Source: Vermamoeba vermiformis (lineage: Eukaryota). From it: DNA of 64,000 nucleotides. Under the pieces are notes generated by a model, which ran no database searches, was not told where the DNA came from, and saw only the letters and a list, made by a program, of their open reading frames with translations. The stretch spans positions 1 to 64,000 of the forward strand of contig JBEWZL010000155.1 in NCBI GenBank assembly GCA_045837725.1. Direction: 5' to 3'. Position numbers and translations under genes: made by a program. Numbering within the stretch: position 1 is the stretch's first letter; each line of letters starts with the position of its first letter. Shown here one piece after another: positions 46,300 through 63,543 of the stretch.

Positions 46300-47668
46300 A
46301 TGGAGCGACCCAGAGATGATAGTGGTGAAGATTTAGGTGAGCCTGCAATGAAGAAACGTCGTATTGAGCACGAGAACGGTAATCTAGTGGATCTGCCAAG
46401 GTATTAACAGAATCTATCCGTTTTTCGTTCAAAAATCAAAATAAATCTAAAAGCTAATAGATAATTATTTTTACGGTATTTTTTAAAGGTTTGAAGGCTC
46501 TGATATTAATTTTAATTTTTCAAGTCAGAATCCGCCATTAGCAGACCTTGAACAACCCGCCAATACAATTAACACAACACCCAATAATACAAACAACAAT
46601 GAAGAGGCGAAAAATATTGAAAATGTTGACAACGAAGAAAAACCCAGTTCTGGATCGGACAAATCTACCCTTCCAAAAGTACTAAATGTCTATAAGCCGA
46701 TATCTAAGACCCCTCTCGAAGTTATTCAAGCATTACAGCAACAATTTCCTGAATATTCTCAAATAGATCCTGAAACTGGTAGACAACTTAAAATCGGTAA
46801 GAGTTCAAGCTAACGCAATACTCGACATTTTCTGGACTCATTTCTAACATTTTATACACTATATTATATGAAATATAGCTAATGAGTAATTACAGGTTAT
46901 GCTGGACGTTTGGATCCGATGGCTCACGGAGTGCTTATTTTGTTGATGGGCGAAGAGAACAAAGACCGCAAAAACTACGAAAATCTTAAGAAAGAATATC
47001 GCTTCGAGGTCATGTTTGGATTAACTACGGACACATATGATGTACTAGGCATGATCGACAGCACAGAGGTCAAAGTGGATGTACCTATCGAGGATCTTCA
47101 AAACAAGATAAACGAGCTTATAACGAAGGAATTTATTGGTCAACATGACCAACCATACCCGCCCTATAGTTCAGCACGAGTCAAGGGCAAGCCACTGTTT
47201 CAATGGGCACGTGATGGAAAATTGAACGAGATCGAGATCCCGGTCAAGCGGATTACGATTGAAGACATGAAAATATTCAATATATACGAGATAAGCATCG
47301 AAGATATGGAGAATAGGATTATTGAGCGGATTAATGGCGTTAAGGGCGATTTCAGACAAAAAGAAATTATCGAAAAATGGCGCCAAGTCTTCGGATCCGT
47401 TGGCTCCAAGGACTTCAAGCTACAAATAGTCACAATAGACGTGCAAGTTACTACAGGCACGTACGTCAGATCAATCGCCCACGAGTTGGGCAAGAAGATG
47501 GGACGAGGAGCTATCGTGGTGGATCTCTTGCGGACACGTGCAGGTGAATTCAAGCTTGAAGACTCACTTCGCTTAGAAGAGGGCACTGGTAATGCAGTAG
47601 CGCCTAGCAGTAGCGTTGTTGAAACTAAGGAGAACAATACTAATGTGTCCAAGGCACCCGAACCATAG
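46300..47668 (+). CDS. TruB-family tRNA pseudouridine synthase with NLS-like N-terminus (3 exons)
   Basis: VLNVYKPISKTP, KIGYAGRLDPMAHGVL (catalytic Asp, spliced across intron 46797..46895), FGLTTDTYD, QPYPPYSSARVKGKPL, GTYVRSIA and LLRTRAG. N-terminal PAMKKRR. Confidence 0.9.
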
Positions 47669-49970: not shown

Positions 49971-52386
49971 ATGAGCACAACGCCTGTATCATTATTATTT
50001 ATTCTCCTCGTGTGCTCGTGTTCTGCTAGTCCTATTCTATGGGCAGGTGGCGTCACGTCCACGTCAGCGGAGTTCAGAGTGGAATCTGATGGGGATCGAA
50101 ACTTCCTTCTCGCGTCAGAACCAGACTTCTGCGAGAATTCGATTGTATATTCGACACCTATTACTAGTGGATTGAATGCAATATCAGTACAATCATTAAA
50201 ACCCCACCAACGATATTATTATGCAGTAGATTCGGATCTGTATTATTTTGGCGAGTTCCAAACATTTCCTCCTGAAGGCCAACATTTTTCTTTTAATTTT
50301 ACCTTCGGCTCCTGCGCATTTACAGGTAAATAGATAATTATTGACAATTTTAAAAATATTATTGAATACAATTTATTTTCAAAAACACTGCTTGGGTACC
50401 AAAATCAATATTAATGTCTATTTATAGGCGCCGAGAGTCTTGCCTTCGAAGAAATGAATCAGCGCCATCCATTGCTGTTCTTGCATTTAGGAGATCTCAA
50501 TTATGGAAACGTCGCCTGTAACTGCCACCAATGCTACTTGAATGCTATTAAAAAGGTACTACATATATATACTAACATTTAAGCTATAATATGATAGTTA
50601 CGGCCTCTAATTCGATTGAATTGTACCAGACTTGGAATTCTACGTTACAATCATCCATGTTCCGCAGTACTGCAATGGCTTATATGTACGACGACCACGA
50701 CTTTGGACCAGACGATTCTGACGCTAATCATCCTGGCAAAGAGGCTGCGAAGCTGATCTACCACCAAGCATTCCCGCATTATCCGCTACATTTTGAAAAG
50801 CCAAGCGACGGTCCTTTATTCCAAGTAACCATTATATTGAATATTAGTACCGATAGCAATATAATTTACCTATACGACGTTATTTTAGGCATTTACCGTT
50901 GGTCGAGTTCGCTTTATTTTGACTGATCTGCGATCTGAATCCACCGAAACTCAAGTCTTAGGCGACGTTCAAAAGGCTGTGAGTAATCATACTAAATTTT
51001 CCTATGAATATTCATGATGCTAATTCATTTGTAGTGGCTATTTGAAGAGTTTGGCAAAGCGAAAGATTATGCGATTGTTGTCTGGGGCAGTACAAAGCCT
51101 TGGATCGGAGATTATGTGAAAGACGATGCTTGGTACAGTTATATTGAAGAGCGACGAGAAATAGCGAACAAGATTGCTGAATTACAAATCGATAATTTGG
51201 TGCTGTTACACGGCGATACGCATTACTTGGCAGCTGGTACGAATATCGATTATTAATTTCTGCGAAATAATGCTAATAATTACTATGTATTTTAGACGAT
51301 GGAACCAATTCAGATTACGCTGATAACGGTGGTGCTGGTTTTCCTGTATTTTGTGCAGCTCCGTTCTATCATATTGGAACGTACAAAGGTGAGTCAATTT
51401 ACTTCTTAAATATAAAATTTCATCATAATTAACTGATAATGTTGCTAGCTGGTCCGTACTCTGAAGGATGCTGGTCGAATCCGCTCGGTCAAAAAGAAAA
51501 AGTTTTGCAACACTACGGAGTCGTGAATATAGTCGATGAAGTTGACGGTGAAACGTGCATTCATTATCGGGGTTTTGAAGTTGGCAATGCTGAGCCAATT
51601 GTTCAAGTGCACAAGTGCCGCCCTTGGGTCGTGAAAGGTTCGCGTACTGAAGAAGTGTCTTCTTGCGTCACGAAACGATTTGAAGACGAAGAATTATGTA
51701 AGTTAATGTTTATTACGCAATATTCATTAAGATATTCTGATTATATGTCTACTCGAGTTCTAATTTTTGGATGTGGATCCGGATCTCGTACAAATTTTAC
51801 ATTACTTAGCCAGCTGACGGAATATTTGGTATTGTTATATATTGTTGCTAATATGGTACTTAATTTAGATTGTGCGAGATGCAAGGAAAAATGTGGCCAA
51901 TGTTACGACACTGAAGGATGCTGCAAAAGCGGAAAAATGTCGCGCGAAGAATGTCCGCAATGCTTGGCTTGCAGCTTGCAAGAAGTTTCAGACGAAGATT
52001 TTGTGTTTAATTACAGGTGCAAACTTTCGTGCAAAAATTCGTGCTTGAGAGTTATGGACAACCAAACAATCGATGAAAATAGTTGCGTGCCTGATGAACC
52101 TCCAGCGGAAATTTCGCAAATTGTCGGCGAGGCTTATACTAATTTTGGCCCACATGATACGACTGACGAGATGAAAATGATGGCTGCTGCTAAAGCAAAC
52201 GAAAAGAAAGAAAAAAAAGATAAAGAAAAGAAAGATAAGGACGAAAAAGATAAAAAAGATAAAGAGAAGAAAAATAACGATGATGAAAAAAAAGATAAAA
52301 AAGGAAAAAAAGAGAAAAAAGATGAAGACGATGAGAAAGAAGATAAAAAGCAAAAAAAGGATAAGAAGTCTAGTAAGAAAGAATAA
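49971..52386 (+). CDS. Secreted PhoD-like alkaline phosphatase with Cys-rich and Lys/Asp/Glu-rich C-terminal extension
   Basis: Signal peptide, FTFGSCA, LFLHLGDLNYG, YMYDDHDFG, FILTDLRS and LLHGDTH (PhoD metallophosphoesterase motifs). Confidence 0.88.
52200..52383 (+). repeat. Low-complexity A/G-rich coding repeat (KKDKE...)
   Basis: AAAGAT/AAAGAA units encoding the K/D/E tail of the PhoD protein. Confidence 0.85.
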
Positions 52387-53583: not shown

Positions 53584-55777
53584 ATGGATACCTTACCTAA
53601 CGAGCTGATCGAGATCATTTTGTCGATGGTTCCAACCGACGACCTCGTAACTAAATTTAGAGCAGTAAATAAGTCATATTTTGCCATATCACAGCGAATG
53701 TAAGTCTCCAACAGCACTTTTTGATTTTTAATTAGTTTATTAAAATTTAAATTAGATTTTCACTATTTAACGAAGAGTATGAGCATATTTGCGATATTGA
53801 TTTTACATGCAGAAATTAAATAATATTTCATTTCAGCAATTTGGAATTCTACTTGATCTAACGACTGATTTTGTTTTAGCGTCTCCGAGATTGGTCCTTC
53901 TTTTAAGCGAGACCATACATACAATGACCATCAAATAATGGTTCTAGCTCGTGATTATCCTTCAATCACTTCACTGAACGTTTCGAAATGGGATCTCAGC
54001 ACAGCTGCTTTGCGCGTCATTTTTACGCAATTTCCGCACTTAAAAACGCTCAAACTAAATCCTATATGTAAGTAATGACATATTTTGATATTTAAGAGAT
54101 TAAATAACTTATTTCACATAATCTGTAAGCTGCAGTAACGACTATTTGGTAGCTAAAAATGGAGCTAATTTTTTTTGTAGATCTGATGCCCGGAAACGAG
54201 CTACGCAAGCATGTTATCCCTTCTGTGACTTCATTAAGCATTAAAGTGGCATCCACGCGCTATTCTCGCTTCAATAGCGGAACTTTTGAAGTTGCATCCA
54301 TCAACACAATTTTTCCGAATCTGGAACACTTGGAAATTCTTGACGAGCCTACTCAAGCCAATGTCGATGATTTATTAAAGGACGTTAAGACCATCAAGAG
54401 TATGACGGTCGAAGGACCTAATATCGAGAAAATTGCGAAGGTGCCACTTTTGAAGACGTTAACTATCGCGAATAATCACCAAAGTAGCATCCAAATAGTG
54501 GATTGTCCTATGCTCGAGACCCTTAATATCAAGTATAGTCAGTTGGCGCAATTTGATTTCTTGAAGAAGATACCGAACGTGCAACATGTGACCCTTCAGC
54601 GAGGTTTTGCAGATCTGTGGAATAGATACGAACATCAAGTCGTGGGGCTTATTAACAACCTGATACAGTACTGTCGTAATATAAGATCACTTTGGATCGA
54701 GCAGTACCAAATCACATCCAAAGATCTAGAACGATTGGTCAACGAACTTCCAAATCTGAAAAAGATAGTGATAACCCCAAGCAAATACGATGAAAACTTG
54801 CCTACCACTGCCGTAATTTTACAAGAAAAGCACAAAAACGTCAAAATCACCGTTACTGCTCGAAATTTCACGGTACGTACTGTAGATCTTGCATCCTTAG
54901 CGGACTTGTGCTAATTGATTTATTTAGACCGGTATCGATATCGACGAATATAATCAGCTTATTAAGGTTGAAAAGACACGTGACCCCTATGTTGAATGTC
55001 AATACTGTCACCTTCAGTATCAATGTGCCCCGGAGGTAGGTAGCGGATCTGACCTCACTTAGGCACTTAAAGGCCATATTTTTCGGTACTAAATAATATT
55101 ATTATAGATTCACGAAGAAGTGTGTTACAAGTGGCCAGCTTGGGACTGTTTGTTCGTGCACGACGGATGTGGTAAGACAGGAATGACCAAGGACGAGTTC
55201 AGAGCGCACATTGACAAGTGCGATTACAACTTCATCAAATGTCCGTTTGAAGAGTGTCCCGAGACTATTCGAAGACACGAACGACACGAGCATTGGAAGG
55301 TAAATTCATGAACAATTTTTTCACGGAACCAAAATATTTCCTTCTGTGATAATCTTTGCAAAAATTTTATTGCTATTTGCGATAATACAATGCTAATACC
55401 ATATTTAGAAACACGAAAAGACGTTTTCGTTCCGTTTGAAAGAGACTCATATGATTTGTCCGAACGTCCAATACGGATGCTTGGACATGTTCGATACACC
55501 TGCAGCCTGCTTAAATCACGTGTCAAAGTGTCAGCACTTGCACCCCCTCTGCATGTCATGCAAAAAGGAGTTCGCATCGATCGATGAGTGCGCGAAACAT
55601 ATGTCCGAATGTAAGGTCACGCAAAAGCGACGAGTCATGCCTGAAGAGTCCATTGCTACTATTTTGGAAAAAGCAGCGAAATTTGCCAAGACCAATGAGG
55701 CACGAGATCAAAATCATTTTCATCTTCGGGGCTATTCACCGGTCTACTTGGGCTCGTCGTACGATGGATACTACTAA
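53584..55777 (+). CDS. F-box / LRR / TRAF-type zinc-finger protein, copy 1
   Basis: MDTLPNELIEIILSMVP...FRAVNK F-box, LRRs (FPNLEHLEI, LPNLKKI), then C/H-rich repeats HIDKCDYNFIKCPFEEC and CPNVQYGC...HVSKC. Confidence 0.8.
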
Positions 55778-55963: not shown

Positions 55964-58264
55964 ATGGATGAATTACCATGGGAGATCGTAGAAATGATTT
56001 TATCGCAGATCCCGAAAGAGGAGCTTGTAACCACATTTCGCGCCGTTAGCAAGCAGTATTTTCAAGTAGCTCAATCGTTGTAAGTAAATATGGAACGATG
56101 GCTCTCCAGCTCAAGTTGTATCGTTTATACTGCAAGATTGATCTCGAAAATCTTTTTGATTTTGTACAAAATTATTACTGCATAATTGAGTACATAATAG
56201 TCGAATATATTAATTTAATTGCACAATATAATTATTAAAAATACTGTAATTGTTCGTTATTAGTCGCGTGAGATCTGATCAAAAAATTCTAACCTAATTT
56301 TTATTCACTAGAGTCACAACGCTGAGCTTTTCGACATTTAAATATGCCCGCAATAATCATGATCGTAATATTATGACATTAGCAAGAGATTTTCCTTTGT
56401 TGGAACATTTGGACATGACCGGATCTTTTCCGTTATCAAATACAGGCCACAAAATTATCTATGGACAAATGACGCAGTTAAAATCGCTCAAAATGACTTC
56501 TATGAGCAAATTAACTTCAAGTTTCTTCTTAAAATGTCGTTTGACAAATCTAGTAAGTAATCATAAACTTTGACGAAACTCGATCTGCCTAAAATTTTAA
56601 ACTTAACGACTCTAATACCCCTAATTATAATATAAATGTGTAGGAAATTTACTATTTAATATTTATTGACGGTAATTCATTTGTGTAGAAAAAGCTGGAC
56701 ATGCATCAAATGGGCAATGAATACGGCGGTTACAAATTACTCTTTGAAGGACGAGAACGACCCGTATTCGTAGCTGCAAATGTATTTCCTAATTTGGAAG
56801 ATTTGAAGATTCACAGAAACGTCACGCAAGGCGATTTGCAGCCAGTTTTAGAGAGTTTGAAACAACTCAGAACATTGCGGATCGAGCTTTGTTCAGCCCC
56901 GATAGTTATAGACAAAAATAGTTCATTAAGGCAGCTAATATTAGAACAATATATGGCGTTTACTATATTTATTGATACACCGACTATCGAAGTGATCGAC
57001 ATCCGATCAAAATTTATGGAGTGGAATCGTTTCAAATGGACTTTCTTGAAAAAATGCCCGAATTTACGCGTATTAAAAGCTGGATCAGTTGAAATCTCTG
57101 AAATTCCAAGCAGTGGATTGGTAGAGCAATTAACAACGTTCAATCCAAAACTGGAAGTACTTCATTTGCACGGACTTATCAAAGAGCCTGAAGAATTAGA
57201 GCAATTAGTATTATGCTTGACGGAACTAAAAGAATTGAACATTTGGCACAGATCTCAACTGAAGAACTCGCGGATGCAAAACGCTATCGAATCCATCAAG
57301 AAAAACTTTCCGAGATTAAAACTGAACTATGCTTGGGCTAAGATAATAGTACGTATTATGTTAATATTAAAGCAAAATTTTTACGTTTTTCATTCGATGA
57401 CACGTGTCATCGCAAACGGGTGGATCTGCACCACTACAGCTCGATACAGCTAACTCTAATTATGATTTATTTAGGTCGATGATGTTATAGATGTCCCTGA
57501 GAAAGATGATACAGTGACTAAATGTCTATTTTGTGCTCAGACTATGACTATAAGTGACTTAAAGGTGCGTGCTCAAACGAACAGATCCAAAAAAACTTTC
57601 TTCAAATTCTAATAATTTTCTTATTATAGGACCACGAAGAAGTATGTCTTAAATGGCCAGGCCATTATTGTCCTTTAAGACCACAAGGCTGCACTGCAGA
57701 AAAAATGACGAAAAATGAAATTCTGATCCACATCCACACGTGCCCGCATTGGATTTATAAATGTGCTGTATGCGGTGAATCAATAAGGCGTCCGGAAAGG
57801 TTAGAGCACGAGAAAGTAAGTAACCGTTTTATCTGTTTGACGAGAAATTTTTGTTGCTGAATCCGATCAGAAATTTTTATCCGGTTTGCAATTACTTATC
57901 AATTTCATTTATGGTTCTCGTGATTTTATGACGTTCAAATATGACAATTTTAGTCTAATCTATGCTTTTTCAGCTACACGAAAAAACTTACAGTTTTGCT
58001 CTTCGATCTGTGTACCATTATTGTCCCTTGGTTATCGACGAATGTCCGGCTCTATTTGATTATAGTGGAGACTACTTTCATCATCTTAGTAACTGTAATC
58101 ATTATAGTTGCTTCTGTCCTAGTTGCAGAAAAGAATTCTCTTCGAGATCCGATGCGGAAAAACACTTGTTTAGCGACGAATGCAAGGGTCCTAGAAGATT
58201 AGAAGAGACTAAGTTCTTATTTAATACATTAGTTCAGCATGCATCAGAGTTAATCTTTTCATGA
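55964..58264 (+). CDS. F-box / LRR / TRAF-type zinc-finger protein, copy 2 (tandem paralogue)
   Basis: MDELPWEIVEMILSQIP...FRAVSK, LRRs, HEEVCLKWP...HIHTCPHWIYKC...HEKTYSFAL. Motifs and intron layout match copy 1. Confidence 0.8.
57395..57412. repeat. Perfect 18-bp palindrome CGATGACACGTGTCATCG in an intron
   Basis: Read directly; same TGACACGTGTCA core as 1409..1420 and 16660..16671. Confidence 0.75.
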
Positions 58265-58491: not shown

Positions 58492-59892
58492 ATGAAGACC
58501 TCGTTGGTTATTTGCTGCCTTATTGCTGCAGCTTTTTTCGTCAGCGCCATCCAAGCGCAATCAACTCTCTGCCCAACTCTTGCAGTAAGAGCTGTTGGCG
58601 GTGATAAGACCGAACAAACCTTCGTTTCTTTGTGGGTTAATGCTAGCTTTGCTGCCTATGCGAATAATACTCAATTTGGCTCATACTTTGTCAACGCAAG
58701 TGACGCAACTCTATCTGCTCACGTAAGCTTTTATGCAAGGTAAGTCAAATAATTAATATATATTTATGCAAGTTCTTATTTTTATTCATTTGATTTTGCA
58801 ATAGAAATAGTTTTTGTTCCAAAAGAGTCTGAAATTGATCTAGATCGCAAAATCTTTTGTTTCGAACATTGACAACCTTTTGTTCTCGCAATTTCACTAA
58901 TAGGTACTATTTTATATAGTCTCATTGGATGCACTGAAGCCTTCACTCCTGTTGCAAATGATAACATGACGGATGTGCACGCCAACTTTACTATTCCCGC
59001 CGCGGATTTTGAAGCCTACGTTGAACTGACGCGCCAAGCCCTTCAAACAGTAGTTCCTGACCTGACTGTTGCTGAAGCTACTCAATTCTACCAAATCTTC
59101 GAATCTTTCCACGAATCTAATTCGACCAAGCTGATCTGCAACCAAGCTGACTGCCAATCCGTTGAAACTGTCACTATTAGTGGTACCACTGAACCTATTG
59201 CATTCGGCGATTTATATATCCCTATCTCCGCCACATCTTTGACGGTAGATAACCCAACCACTTTTTCAGTCAAACTTTATTACATGCCTTCAAATTCAAC
59301 TGCATGCGCCTCATCAGTCTCATTACAAGATATACTTCCCGAAGTAATGGGCCAAACTCTTGATCTTCCGTTCACTGAAACAGGGATCTACTACATCTAC
59401 CAAGTCACTATTGCGGCCACAGAGTGCTTCTTGAACACGACTGTATTCAACACTAGTGTGCTCATTGTGGACTTTACTTTGCCTCCTGTCTTGCCTCCAG
59501 TCGACACTCCCATTGCACCGCCAGTAGAGCCTCCAGTCAGCAATGTCACCGAGCCTATTGCTCCTCCAGTCAGCAACGACACAGCCCCTGTCACTGAGCC
59601 CATTGCACCGCCCGTGAACAACGACACCGTGCCCGTCTCTCCCCCTGTCGTTGAGCCCCCTGTCACTCCCCCCGTTGCCGAAGTGCCAGTAGATGCACCA
59701 GTCACTGCCGTGCCCATTTCAGCGCCAGCCTCTGACGGCAATGTTACGCCCGCAGCTGCGAATGAAAAGTTCGAAGCAGGTGGTTATATTGCAGGTATTG
59801 TCATCTTAGTGCTCATCGTGATTGGTCTGCTTATTGCGGTCATTGTTATGGGTGTCAAATTGCGACGAAACAGCACCGTAGTTGTTGCTTAA
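58492..59892 (+). CDS. Type-I membrane protein with extracellular truncated-haemoglobin (2/2 globin)-like domain, beta-rich domain, Pro-rich stalk and TM helix
   Basis: Exons 58492..58739 and 58920..59892. Signal peptide, then ...QFGSYF...LSAHVSFYASLIGC...MTDVHANFTIPAADFEAYVELTRQAL, which aligns by eye to group-I trHb. TM GYIAGIVILVLIVIGLLIAVIVMGV followed by KLRR. Confidence 0.75.
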
Positions 59893-60331: not shown

Positions 60332-62099
60332 TTATAATGCCTCTTCGTCTTCTTCATTCGGATCGCCAATAAAAACTATGTTGAAAGGCAATCTGGCTTT
60401 GAGATCCTTACGGTAACCACGCCAATAGGTTAACTCCATTACTTGTGTTAGTTTAGCAAAGTCATTGATGGTATCATCGCTAGGAGCATCACTGAACAAA
60501 AGACTGCCCAGATTCGGAAGTCGTTCAAGACTGGGGATCATCTCTAAAAAAGGAGAAATTTGATTAAACTGATGCTAATGATATATAAATTACCTTTTGG
60601 AGCTATAGGAAGCATAACAAGCGCAGTAAGACGAGTCAGTTGCGTGATCCAACGAGCCATCAAAGTCGCATTGAAGTTGTTATGATCGCACTCAAGACGT
60701 TTAAGTTTAGTTAGGCCACAAATAGTCGTAATATTCTCTTCTGTCACTTCGTTTGATGTACCAAGGTGTTCTAAGCTTGGTGGCAAAGCTGACATTTTGA
60801 AGCCTTTTCCGCGAAAGACAAAAGAAGTTAAGTTCGTAAAATGTGATAATTCTGCCGTTTCCATCTTCGTATCAATTTCTAACTCCATTAGCGTCGTTAA
60901 TTTCGTTAAATAGCCAAAATCGAGATTTCCGTCAAAATTGCTGATACTCAGCCGGGTCAGATGCGATAGCTGACCAATGAAAGAAGCGTCTGCCAAATAC
61001 TCTTCTTGATTGAAATCCCATGGATAAGTCAGAGTCAAGTTGGATAAATTCGGCAAACTGTAAAGTAGTTTCAGACTCGTGGATTTGATCCCTGGGTTGT
61101 GATGCATTACAAGCCTTTGCAAATTGGTCAAGTTCGTTATCTTTGTGAACGATTGGTCGGTAATATTGCTACTATTGTGGGCAATTTCAAGGCATTGGAG
61201 TTGTGTTAAGCCCATCACATCTGGCCACATGGCGTCATCCAAATTGTCGCAGAATGAAAGGGCCAAGCTCTTCAGCTGAGTCAATAAATTTACTCCAATA
61301 ACTAAAAAATAAGGTTAGTAATTAGAGTTTTAATGACCAAACTTAACGTTCAATTTCAAGTCCGGATTTGGTTATCGATAAGCTTCGAACGAAAGTTTAA
61401 ATTTAAATATTATTTTATGTTCTACTTACGCTTGCTATCTGTTCGAATCCTAAGCATCGTTAATCTCGTGTGATCAATGAAAAATTGGCCAATATTGAAG
61501 TTTTGCTCGACTTCAGCAGTGTACCAATTCAACATTTGCAATTGAATGTTCTTCAATATTAAATCATTAACGCTACTGCTGCTTTTTTTGAATTTTTTAT
61601 CAGGAAAATTGAAGTCTACTGTCAACGAGTGCAGATTCGTAAGTTTTGAATGCTTGAGAGACTCGAGCTGTTGCAGCAATAGAGGAACTTTAGTCTTCTC
61701 AGATTGAAATGCTTGTTCGCTGGGCTGGTAAACTAGATATAAATTGCAAACGTGAGACAGATCTCGAGCCAAAACCGAAGAAAAAGCGTCGATCGGCCAC
61801 CCGTGTTCAACTGATATTTCTTGGCAGCATGTCCACGTTAAATCGAGCATATTTTTCGCTGTCATGCCAAATCTAAATGTAAACGATCAAAATAAATATC
61901 GAAAAAATCAAATCCGAATTTTTCCCTCGAACAATTAAATAGCTAATGCACTCCGTTCACACGCTAATCGTACCTTTTTAATATTTCAAAAAATAAATAT
62001 TATGATATCGTAATTTTACCTTAAAACGTCAGGCAAACTTAAATTATTCCAGATGGTGCGAAGCACATCCAACGGCAACTCCAGCAAATTATGGCCCAT
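60332..62099 (-). CDS. F-box / LRR protein
   Basis: MGHNLLELPLDVLRTIWNNLSLPDVLR F-box and many LTxLxxLxL repeats. Confidence 0.85.
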
Positions 62100-62295: not shown

Positions 62296-63543
62296 TTAAT
62301 TTTTTATGAGAGAAGCAAGATCCGGCTTCTTTCTGTTCTTCGAAGGCGAGTCCGTTGTTGTATTCGTTGCTAACACGTACTCGACTGCTTCTTTCGCTGA
62401 TGAAGTTCTATGTACGATGAAATATTGTTGCAACGCTGCCGTGCTCATGTGCTTGAAGTTGTTACGGATTTGGATCACCCGATCAACAAAGTCTTTAGCG
62501 AGACCAGCTTCAGCTTGAGGGTAGTACTGCTTGAACATTTGCTCTATCTGTTCGTCGGTGATTACTGCAGGGTATTCTAGCTGCATGTCTACTCGACCAG
62601 GGCGAATTAAAGCCGGATCCAATTTTTCAATGTGATTTGTAGTCAACACAAAAATTGATGCGTCTTTGCCGCCTATTCCATCGAGCGCGTTTAATAGTCC
62701 ACTAAAAGATAATGGAATATTTTCCAACTTTGTGCGATCTGAGCCGAAAAGAGCATCCACATCTTCCAAAACGACCACGGATTTGTTCGGAACTGTTTGC
62801 AAAGCTTTCTTTAATAATGAATCGGTCATCTTCGGGTCCGATACGTGCAAGTAAGCCACATTTCTGTCGGTATAGGACGCTAAGGCAGTAATAGTGGATG
62901 TCTTGCCAGTACCAGGTGGACCATAAAACAAATACGACCGCTTATATGGAATGCAATGCGTAGCATACCAACGAGCAGTCTCTTTGCCTAAGAAGTTGTT
63001 CACGTCGTCGAGAAGTTGTTCTTTGAGATCTGCAGGCAAGATGACGGATTCCATCGTTCTTTTTCGCTTGATTATTGAGCGAGACCAGCACTGATTGTTG
63101 ACATTAAATGCATATACCGAAAATACGGTATTGTTGGTATGATTGTCCCATGCAGTGACTTTGTCGATAAAAGATTTTAGCACATCCAACTTTGTCGTGC
63201 CTTCCATAAGTAGCACTAGTGTCGTAAGATATTGCGGACCCATAACTGGCTTGCCATGAACTGCGTGAATGAAGTGTATAGTATTGCCTTCGTAGTCAAT
63301 CTTGAAGGTGCCCAAGCCCAAAGAAAAGCTGCATCCGTTTGATTTTTCTTCGTCTTCTGGATCTATCGTTGATAAAGTACCAATGCGCACGCTCTTCTTG
63401 CAACCACAGACGTTGGTCAAGTACTTGCATATAGAAGAGTAAGAAGATTCTGTTGATTTGAGTTCTAAAGACGTGCACTGATCGGGATCGAGGTTAATCG
63501 ATCTGATTGATTCTAAGCTGTAAGGATAATATGATGTATTCAT
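62296..63543 (-). CDS. BCS1-like AAA+ ATPase, intronless
   Basis: WYATHCIPYKRSYLFYGPPGTGKTS, VVVLEDVDALF, LSFSGLLNALDG and TTNHIEKLDPALIRPGRVD. First ATG is at 63543. Confidence 0.88.
   Translation of the reverse strand: MNTSYYPYSLESIRSINLDPDQCTSLELKSTESSYSSICKYLTNVCGCKKSVRIGTLSTIDPEDEEKSNGCSFSLGLGTFKIDYEGNTIHFIHAVHGKPVMGPQYLTTLVLLMEGTTKLDVLKSFIDKVTAWDNHTNNTVFSVYAFNVNNQCWSRSIIKRKRTMESVILPADLKEQLLDDVNNFLGKETARWYATHCIPYKRSYLFYGPPGTGKTSTITALASYTDRNVAYLHVSDPKMTDSLLKKALQTVPNKSVVVLEDVDALFGSDRTKLENIPLSFSGLLNALDGIGGKDASIFVLTTNHIEKLDPALIRPGRVDMQLEYPAVITDEQIEQMFKQYYPQAEAGLAKDFVDRVIQIRNNFKHMSTAALQQYFIVHRTSSAKEAVEYVLATNTTTDSPSKNRKKPDLASLIKN

Follow-up and report, generated by a model that had tools for sequence, protein, structure and literature searches.

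Truncated, or 2-on-2, haemoglobins have been studied as small, soluble, cytoplasmic proteins. According to the literature, some bacterial members act outside the cytoplasmic membrane. In the accessible part of one report, YjbI of Bacillus subtilis is described as a truncated haemoglobin of the cell surface, which removes protein hydroperoxides and protects surface proteins from oxidation, and HbN of Mycobacterium tuberculosis is cited as glycosylated and surface-located; as far as that text goes, both lack a signal peptide and a membrane anchor, and their export route is unknown (PMC9536834). In the available part of another, pentahaem cytochromes with truncated-haemoglobin domains (lPHCtX) from the periplasm of cable bacteria are proposed to be periplasmic oxygen reductases (PMC11976967). 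The window analysed here (the whole stretch of 64,000 nucleotides, positions 1 to 64,000 of contig JBEWZL010000155.1 of the amoeba Vermamoeba vermiformis, assembly GCA_045837725.1) contains a two-exon gene at 58492–59892 on the forward strand, the product of which is a type I membrane protein of 406 amino acids. Its N-terminal head is predicted to resemble a truncated haemoglobin, and the reading preferred here, held at a probability of about 0.5, is that of a tethered exoplasmic globin acting as a scavenger or sensor together with a membrane partner at its transmembrane helix.

The comparison with the described systems reveals both likenesses and differences. With YjbI and HbN the protein would share the action of a truncated haemoglobin outside the cytoplasmic membrane, whereas the targeting signals which, by the accessible text, those two lack are encoded in this eukaryotic gene (a signal peptide, N-glycosylation sequons, a stalk and a transmembrane helix). 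As far as the lPHCtX family is described in the accessible part of its report, its truncated-haemoglobin domain is exported with the help of a signal peptide, and an immunoglobulin-like domain is found in the family as well, but these proteins are bacterial, are fused to electron-supplying multihaem cytochromes and have no stalk or transmembrane anchor (PMC11976967); no sequence relationship was found between them and the window protein. The extracellular globins of invertebrates, in the part of the source available, are secreted, disulfide-bearing proteins with signal peptides (PMC7549130); they differ in being full-length 3-on-3 globins that form soluble multimers, carry oxygen and have no membrane anchor. 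The preliminary description of this locus, in which truncated globins are said to be soluble and intracellular as a rule, has to be qualified in view of the surface and periplasmic bacterial cases, so far as the two sources go (PMC9536834, PMC11976967).

In the openly accessible literature, which mostly excludes subscription journals, no eukaryotic truncated haemoglobin that is membrane-anchored or enters the secretory pathway was found, and a surface, membrane-anchored head of this kind is not described for eukaryotic globins in the literature searched. If the reading is right, the truncated-haemoglobin lineage would have its first eukaryotic member that is anchored in a membrane and passes through the secretory pathway, and the cellular locations known for the globin superfamily would increase by a new one. 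Such a protein would provide a protist with haem-based sensing or scavenging of NO, O2 or peroxide outside the cell, or else with a globin-fold receptor for haem uptake. It would also raise the questions of how a globin receives its haem in the secretory pathway and where the electrons come from extracellularly.

Gene structure and membrane topology

The organization of the gene and of its product is as follows:

58492..58739, + strand: exon 1, with the start codon, the signal peptide and the first half of the globin-like domain (residues 1–82 and two bases of codon 83); its N-terminus aligns with that of the homologue P0005, and a contig of sequencing run X1 spans 58497–58737
58740..58919, + strand: intron of 180 nucleotides, GT..AG, phase 2, at the end of the predicted E helix
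58920..59892, + strand: exon 2, with the second half of the globin-like domain, the beta-rich domain, the Pro/Val-rich stalk, the transmembrane helix and the tail; based on the homologues P0003, P0004 and P0005
58492..58557, + strand: signal peptide, residues 1–22; hydrophobic window over residues 1–24, predicted cleavage after A-I-Q-A
58558..58739, + strand: globin-like N-domain, part 1, residues 23–82, with Cys27 and the predicted A, B, C and E helices; key residues by profile alignment and conservation in P0005 are Phe66 (CD1-like) and His77 (E11-like, codon 58720–58722)
58920..59154, + strand: globin-like N-domain, part 2, residues 83–161, with Cys87, the predicted G and H helices, Cys156 and Cys161; key residues are an M-x-x-V-H motif with His103 (F8-like, codon 58978–58980), Ile108, Phe113 and Tyr116 (G8-like)
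59155..59475, + strand: beta-rich domain, residues 162–268, with conserved Cys212 and Cys252 and no histidine
59476..59772, + strand: Pro/Val/Ala/Thr-rich stalk, residues 269–367, with NVT/NDT sequons
59785..59856, + strand: transmembrane helix, residues 372–395, with a 19-residue Kyte-Doolittle mean of up to 3.5
59857..59889, + strand: cytoplasmic tail of 11 residues, 396–406, KLRRNSTVVVA

As read directly from the sequence, the coding sequence starts with the ATG at 58492 and ends with the TAA stop codon at 59890–59892. Exon 1 ends with ...GCAAG/GTAAGT at 58739/58740, and the intron, which contains stop codons in all frames, ends with ...TATATAG/TC at 58919/58920. The spliced coding sequence comprises 1221 nucleotides and keeps the frame to give the 406 amino acids. 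The excision of 58740..58919 had been proposed from the window alone, and it was borne out by three lines of evidence. A Logan contig of 495 nucleotides from run X1 (a run labelled RNA by guess only) connects 58737 to 58918 and omits 180 nucleotides with GT..AG ends; with the cut moved by +2, its junction is 58739/58920, and the depth of X1 is zero inside the intron and in the flanks. In addition, P0005 (a complete protein of 361 amino acids encoded on a contig of 1135 nucleotides) is colinear with the spliced window protein, shows no gap at the junction and matches the window start with its N-terminus. A tblastn search with P0005 matched both exons and found no paralogue elsewhere in the window. 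Thus, the splice model is supported by the X1 contig, the gap-free P0005 alignment and the tblastn matches on both exons, and all of the peptide strings quoted in the preliminary description were found in the translations of the two exons.

The contigs of run X1 are closely related to the window, with six of the eight listed differences in the head at third codon positions and the other two altering one codon, a Ser-to-Val change that is also found in P0003. If the guessed RNA label is right, a spliced form is transcribed in a near relative. Two RNA runs from another organism (X21 and X22) contributed about 240 reads each, which match short conserved parts only, at 90–95% likeness, and run on into unlike sequence beyond them. 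About 190 reads per run match only 59083–59115 (33 nucleotides of the predicted H helix) and diverge on both sides. The reads of both runs indicate that a diverged relative is transcribed there as well, and those of the 33-nucleotide stretch look like the product of a well-expressed, diverged orthologue in another organism, one with the same species label as a run that contains the sequence.

Signal peptide and transmembrane calls were made from hydrophobicity and residue pattern, and by such analysis of hydrophobicity and composition the signal peptide, PV/PP-rich stalk, single transmembrane helix and tail of about 11 residues noticed earlier are all present. Signal peptides are cleaved after small residues at positions −3 and −1, and such residues occupy both positions of the predicted site in the window protein and in P0005. 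The second hydrophobic stretch covers residues 366–399, with a core at 372–395. The stalk contains 28 Pro and 20 Val per 100 residues (residues 266–365), and an Ala/Pro/Val-rich stretch is found at the equivalent place in P0005. The protein has 14 NxS/T sequons in total, 13 of which lie N-terminal to the transmembrane helix. All six cysteines of the ectodomain are kept in P0005 despite an ectodomain identity of only 29–44%. Conserved cysteines, sequons, signal peptide and transmembrane helix together are as expected for a glycosylated type I membrane protein with disulfide bonds on the exoplasmic side. Two disulfides are probably formed in the head among Cys27, Cys87, Cys156 and Cys161, and the head would lie on the exoplasmic side, which may be the cell surface or the inside of an endocytic compartment.

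The globin-like head

The fold evidence rests on the homologue P0005, which is 44% identical to the window N-domain. AlphaFold2 was run on residues 22–168 of P0005 with an alignment, A3, of six rows (P0005, both window exon products, P0003 and P0004), which was used instead of the MAFFT alignment A2; the latter was discarded because it misplaced the end of exon 1. The resulting model is all-helical (mean predicted local distance difference test score, pLDDT, 63.8; predicted template modelling score, pTM, 0.66), and its eight helices, at positions 6–13, 17–34, 36–42, 46–63, 66–69, 80–87, 93–109 and 115–132, follow the order A, B, C, E, short F, G and H, as in 2-on-2 globins. Of the two conserved histidines, one belongs to the long E-like helix, and the other lies where the short F-like helix ends.

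Comparison of this model with the Protein Data Bank (PDB) by Foldseek retrieved 2-on-2 globins almost exclusively. All 36 matches listed between ranks 1 and 44 are haemoglobins, most of which are truncated or 2-on-2 by name, with probabilities of 0.98–1.00, TM-scores of 0.51–0.64 over the query (TMq) and of up to 0.75 over the target (TMt), and sequence identities of 9–17%. Overall, globins account for 38 of the 40 rows listed, and the two non-globins (ranks 46–47) have TM-scores of ≤0.25. The matches include Arabidopsis GLB3, Hell's Gate globin IV and M. tuberculosis HbN and HbO, as well as proteins from Paramecium, Tetrahymena, Chlamydomonas, Bacillus, Shewanella and others. Among the predicted viral structures of BFVD, the sole row with a probability above 0.6 is "Globin [Edafosvirus sp.]", from a giant virus (TMq, 0.54). 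By comparison, the model of the neighbouring beta-rich domain (pLDDT, 53) gave only rows with probabilities of ≤0.10, so that a weak model alone does not yield a coherent family of matches. On these predictions, the head very probably has a 2-on-2 fold.

For a sequence-level test, local profiles were built from 38 bacterial matches to the Pfam family Bac_globin (PF01152), with E-values given at a search space of one. Against a combined profile of 32 near-full-length domains, P0005 scored 10.9 bits, the spliced N-domain of the window protein 9.0 and P0004 8.1, and the real score was reached by none of 3,000 shuffles for P0005 and for the window domain, and by one for P0004. A profile of six shorter PF01152 matches ("short") gave 15.6 bits (E-value, 1.1 × 10−6) for the window domain over 68 columns, which span the CD region, the E helix and the proximal His and reach into the G helix; none of 10,000 shuffles of the domain reached this score, the top shuffle being at 10.5 bits. 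The same held for the 10,000 shuffles against the profile named "oth", and the window domain scored 9.0–10.8 bits against the two other shuffle-tested profiles. A local hhalign comparison of the family alignment with a truncated-haemoglobin alignment gave a P-value of 4.4 × 10−4 over 32 columns. These profile tests measure the strength of the motif and are no independent evidence, because the hypothesis of the preliminary description, although fixed in advance, was derived from the same motif.

The residues of the head were assigned to globin positions, with the names (F8, E11, CD1, G8 and so on) used as in the truncated-haemoglobin literature:

His103: F8 (proximal); coincides with the proximal His of each of the four profiles in every one of the four sequences, and is predicted to lie in the short F helix
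Met99 and Val102: F4 and F7; Met kept in all four sequences, Val replaced by Ile in P0005
Ile108 and Phe113: F8 +5 and +10; group I-like spacing
Tyr116: F8 +13 (G8); on the G8 Trp of the group II-like profile
Phe66: CD1; on the conserved Phe of the profile in the 68-column alignment
Thr73: E7; by the 68-column alignment
His77: E11; by the 68-column alignment, kept in both sequences that cover it
Phe80 and Tyr81: E14 and E15 pair; by the 68-column alignment

The profile alignments thus agree with the earlier placement of histidines at F8 and E11 and of phenylalanine at CD1. His103, Met99, Ile108, Phe113, Tyr116, Cys156 and Cys161 are kept in all four sequences, and Phe66, Cys27 and Cys87, like His77, in both of those covering them; Phe66, Phe80 and Tyr81 correspond to Phe, Tyr and Tyr in P0005. 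His147, the only other histidine of the protein, is not conserved. In truncated haemoglobins, the proximal His and the E-helix, CD1 and E14/E15-like positions contact the haem.

Compared with truncated haemoglobins of groups I and II (HbN, 1idr; Paramecium, 1dlw; Tetrahymena, 3aq5; Arabidopsis GLB3, 4c44; PF01152), the predicted fold matches with the same helix order. The M-x-x-V-H proximal motif, Ile at +5 and Phe at +10 are shared in the group I-like manner, the aromatic residue at +13 (G8) is found as in group II, and the CD1-like Phe and the E14/E15-like aromatic pair are likewise present. On the other hand, the window protein has a His at the E11-like position, no Tyr at B10 and four conserved cysteines. 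The spacing mixes features of groups I and II, so that no group (I, II or III) is assignable. By the model and the alignments, the globin identity is largely supported for the fold and the key residues, not for the biochemistry. The most fitting description of the protein is that of a divergent truncated-haemoglobin variant with a membrane anchor, rather than that of a proven member of the family.

Proposed function and alternative explanations

In the proposed mechanism, the signal peptide would be cleaved to leave a 2-on-2 head of about 140 residues, followed by the beta-rich domain with one conserved Cys pair, a glycosylated Pro/Val-rich stalk of about 100 residues, one transmembrane helix and the 11-residue tail. 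The head may bind one haem b through His103, with His77 (E helix, E11-like) and Tyr116 (G8-like) facing the distal side of an otherwise apolar pocket; judged from the modelled fold and the kept residues, haem binding is rather likely. A distal pocket without Tyr B10 makes a bis-histidyl, six-coordinate haem plausible. Such a state occurs in some known truncated haemoglobins; among six-coordinate members, the cyanobacterial GlbN has His as distal ligand and Chlamydomonas THB1 has Lys. In those proteins, as possibly here, a residue of the E helix one turn from E7 can bind the iron, and two THB1 structures (4xdi and 6cii) are among the Foldseek matches; compared with GlbN and THB1, the iron contact of His77 is putative, and its E10 or E11 register is beyond the quality of the model.

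The haem would be held exoplasmically, on the surface of the cell or inside an endocytic or phagosomal compartment, and the tethered protein might serve there as a scavenger or sensor whose haem reacts with gases or small oxidants (NO, O2, peroxides). Through the transmembrane helix, which is unusually conserved, the head would be docked to a partner in the membrane that might donate electrons or be a subunit for signalling or transport. A redox or gas role is favoured over haem capture because redox chemistry is what truncated haemoglobins have been reported to perform outside the cytoplasm; drawn from this analogy, the preference is a tentative one. It is somewhat more doubtful that the protein represents an unrecognised class, namely a disulfide-locked, bis-histidyl 2-on-2 globin on a glycosylated stalk, coupled through its transmembrane helix to a partner and serving as sensor, scavenger or haem-uptake receptor.

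A number of results weigh against this reading. The proposal of a truncated-haemoglobin domain on the exoplasmic side stood as regards the fold and the key residues, but the curated Pfam cut-off was not reached: the gathering threshold of Bac_globin is 21 bits, and the best score is 11.9 bits (E-value, 0.27), obtained by P0004, for which this is the only Pfam match (residues 1–34 on profile positions 70–103). P0005, P0003 and both exon products (P0001 and P0002) gave no Bac_globin match at E-values of up to 10, the NCBIfam scan of exon products and homologues was empty, and searches of PDB sequences with P0002 and with the A3 profile found no globin at E-values of up to 10, the best match being a thermosome (E-value, 0.53). 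The hhalign probability is 33% in local and 0.6% in global mode (global P-value, 0.044), and four home-made profiles were tried, so that their E-values need a small correction. No Foldseek match in the PDB has an E-value of ≤0.001 (best, 0.014). The head model is of moderate confidence, with no residue at a pLDDT of ≥90 and with the EF loop, the F helix and the C-terminus at about 34–53, and the alignment behind it is very shallow, with about three independent lineages. The RNA label of run X1 is a guess. Furthermore, an exoplasmic haem enzyme requires an electron source, which here would have to be a putative partner.

Two sequence features count on the same side. Tyr at B10 is near-universal in truncated haemoglobins of groups I–III, and it is absent here in both candidate registers, in which B10 is Phe53 counting back from CD1 (Ile in P0005) or Val49 in the global hhalign alignment; of the earlier claim that Phe replaces Tyr at B10, the loss of Tyr holds in either register, and the replacing residue depends on which one applies. 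Gly-Gly hinges at the AB and EF corners are typical of groups I and II, and they are kept only in part: Gly36-Gly37 of the window protein falls on the AB Gly-Gly in the weak global hhalign alignment (Ala-Gly in P0005), and the EF corner reads Gly-Cys in the window protein and Ser-Cys in P0005.

The main functional rival retains the haem-binding globin head and gives it a nutritional role, as a stalked receptor that captures haem from the medium or from digested prey and then hands it over, either through endocytosis or to a transporter that docks at the conserved transmembrane helix. The long glycosylated stalk, the lack of a cytoplasmic signalling domain and the strongly conserved transmembrane helix fit a receptor with a partner, the architecture resembles other stalked surface haem-binding receptors, and a reductase partner would be unnecessary. 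However, globins hold haem very tightly, the surface truncated haemoglobins reported so far have redox roles, and we know of no globin-fold protein that serves as a haem-uptake receptor. No iron or haem genes were found nearby among the 10 open reading frames (ORFs) scanned in the window, and the neighbouring ORFs (leucine-rich repeat, LRR; Cys/His-rich; TruB-family; BCS1-like) include none that bears on haem or iron. Haem capture is accordingly regarded as unlikely, and the two remaining alternatives are less likely still.

One of these keeps the globin fold and dispenses with haem, making the head a cofactor-free or differently liganded module for recognition or adhesion, like the globin-fold domains without haem in RsbR or photoglobin. 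Non-haem globin families exist, according to the accessible part of PMC8717448; in the present protein, the absence of Tyr B10, a sequon close to the proximal His (N105 in the window protein) and the scores under the family thresholds would suit such a module. It is made improbable by the F8-like His, which is found in all four sequences within a conserved M-x-x-(V/I)-H ... I ... F ... Y frame, by the E-helix His in both sequences covering it, and by the retention of the CD1-like and E14/E15-like aromatic residues.

That the head is no globin at all, being a lineage-specific disulfide-bonded helical bundle for which the AlphaFold2 and Foldseek results are an artefact of a shallow alignment and a chance local motif, would accord with the moderate pLDDT, the Foldseek E-values above 0.001 and the lack of matches above curated profile thresholds or to globin sequences in the PDB, but is very improbable, as two structure libraries independently give globins as the only good matches, the poor model of the neighbouring domain returns noise, the calibrated profile scores of the window domain exceed all 10,000 shuffles and the same His falls on F8 in all four sequences.

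Relatives, second domain and genomic surroundings

The family consists of four known sequences, the window protein and P0003, P0004 and P0005. Word-based searches of 5.8 billion protein clusters gave only these three relatives, as did an exhaustive phmmer search of 1.84 billion representatives with residues 1–188 of exon 2 as query. Pattern scans confirmed no relatives among 271 and 449 stretches of metagenome contigs, 234 stretches in prokaryotic genomes or 46 in viral contigs. P0003 (307 amino acids) is 93% identical to the window protein, and P0004 (101 amino acids) 57%. The public models of both, which lie on genomic contigs, begin at a Met four residues before the conserved His, at the first ATG of exon 2, so that the N-terminal half of the head is missing from them; these relatives probably have the intron at the same position. 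P0003 and P0004 align to the window from 58966 onward. With half-domain public models and no curated profile at threshold, the case shows how such proteins escape annotation.

The head is more conserved than the beta-rich domain in every comparison (98 versus 85% identity for P0003, 68 versus 32% for P0004 and 44 versus 29% for P0005). The transmembrane helix and tail are 100% identical to those of P0003 and 68% identical to those of P0005, which makes them the best-conserved part at that depth. That the intramembrane part is so conserved suggests that the helix is in contact with a partner or with itself, and to judge from the sequences, the region hints at an intramembrane partner or a sorting signal. 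Compared with P0005, the transmembrane helix and the juxtamembrane GVKLR motif (59785–59889, + strand) are most conserved, and both tails end with Val-Ala. Matches of P0005 to CEMIP_X (E-value, 0.076), and ECSCR and LapA matches on the transmembrane region, were treated as chance.

The beta-rich second domain was modelled by AlphaFold2 as mostly strands with three short helical turns, and Foldseek found no credible match for this model. It had been thought to resemble a cupredoxin-like fold, an idea that was abandoned: plastocyanin and azurin appeared only at E-values of 3.7–9.8, with probabilities of ≤0.02 and TM-scores of ≤0.27, and a cupredoxin copper site (His, Cys, His and Met ligands) is excluded because residues 162–268 have no histidine (the only His residues of the protein being 77, 103 and 147). 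An Atlas search with residues 1–185 of exon 2 gave a best score of 0.77, below the useful range and a lead only, to bacterial clusters of Ig-like domains (Y_Y_Y, PKD, filamin).

Several other ORFs of the window were recorded. A Cys-rich ORF without a Pfam match (51433–52386, + strand) ends with a long Lys/Glu/Asp low-complexity tail. Just upstream of the globin-like gene, short Cys/His-rich ORFs stand in a row (57475–58264, + strand); by eye they are like TRAF-type zinc fingers and are probably exons of one gene, and two pieces that were scanned gave no Pfam match at E-values of ≤0.01. Three ORFs with LRR domains (Pfam LRR_4 and LRR_14), at 54153–54914 (+ strand), 56689–57453 (+ strand) and 60544–61314 (− strand), flank the gene and look like a local LRR gene cluster. 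A TruB-family pseudouridine synthase is encoded at 46886–47668 on the + strand (TruB_N; E-value, 3 × 10−26). For the BCS1-like AAA ATPase ORF (62299–63543, − strand), the nearest Atlas clusters, with scores of 0.98–0.99, are mostly from giant viruses (Nucleocytoviricota), with one mainly haptophyte cluster, which may reflect viral ancestry or sampling bias only.

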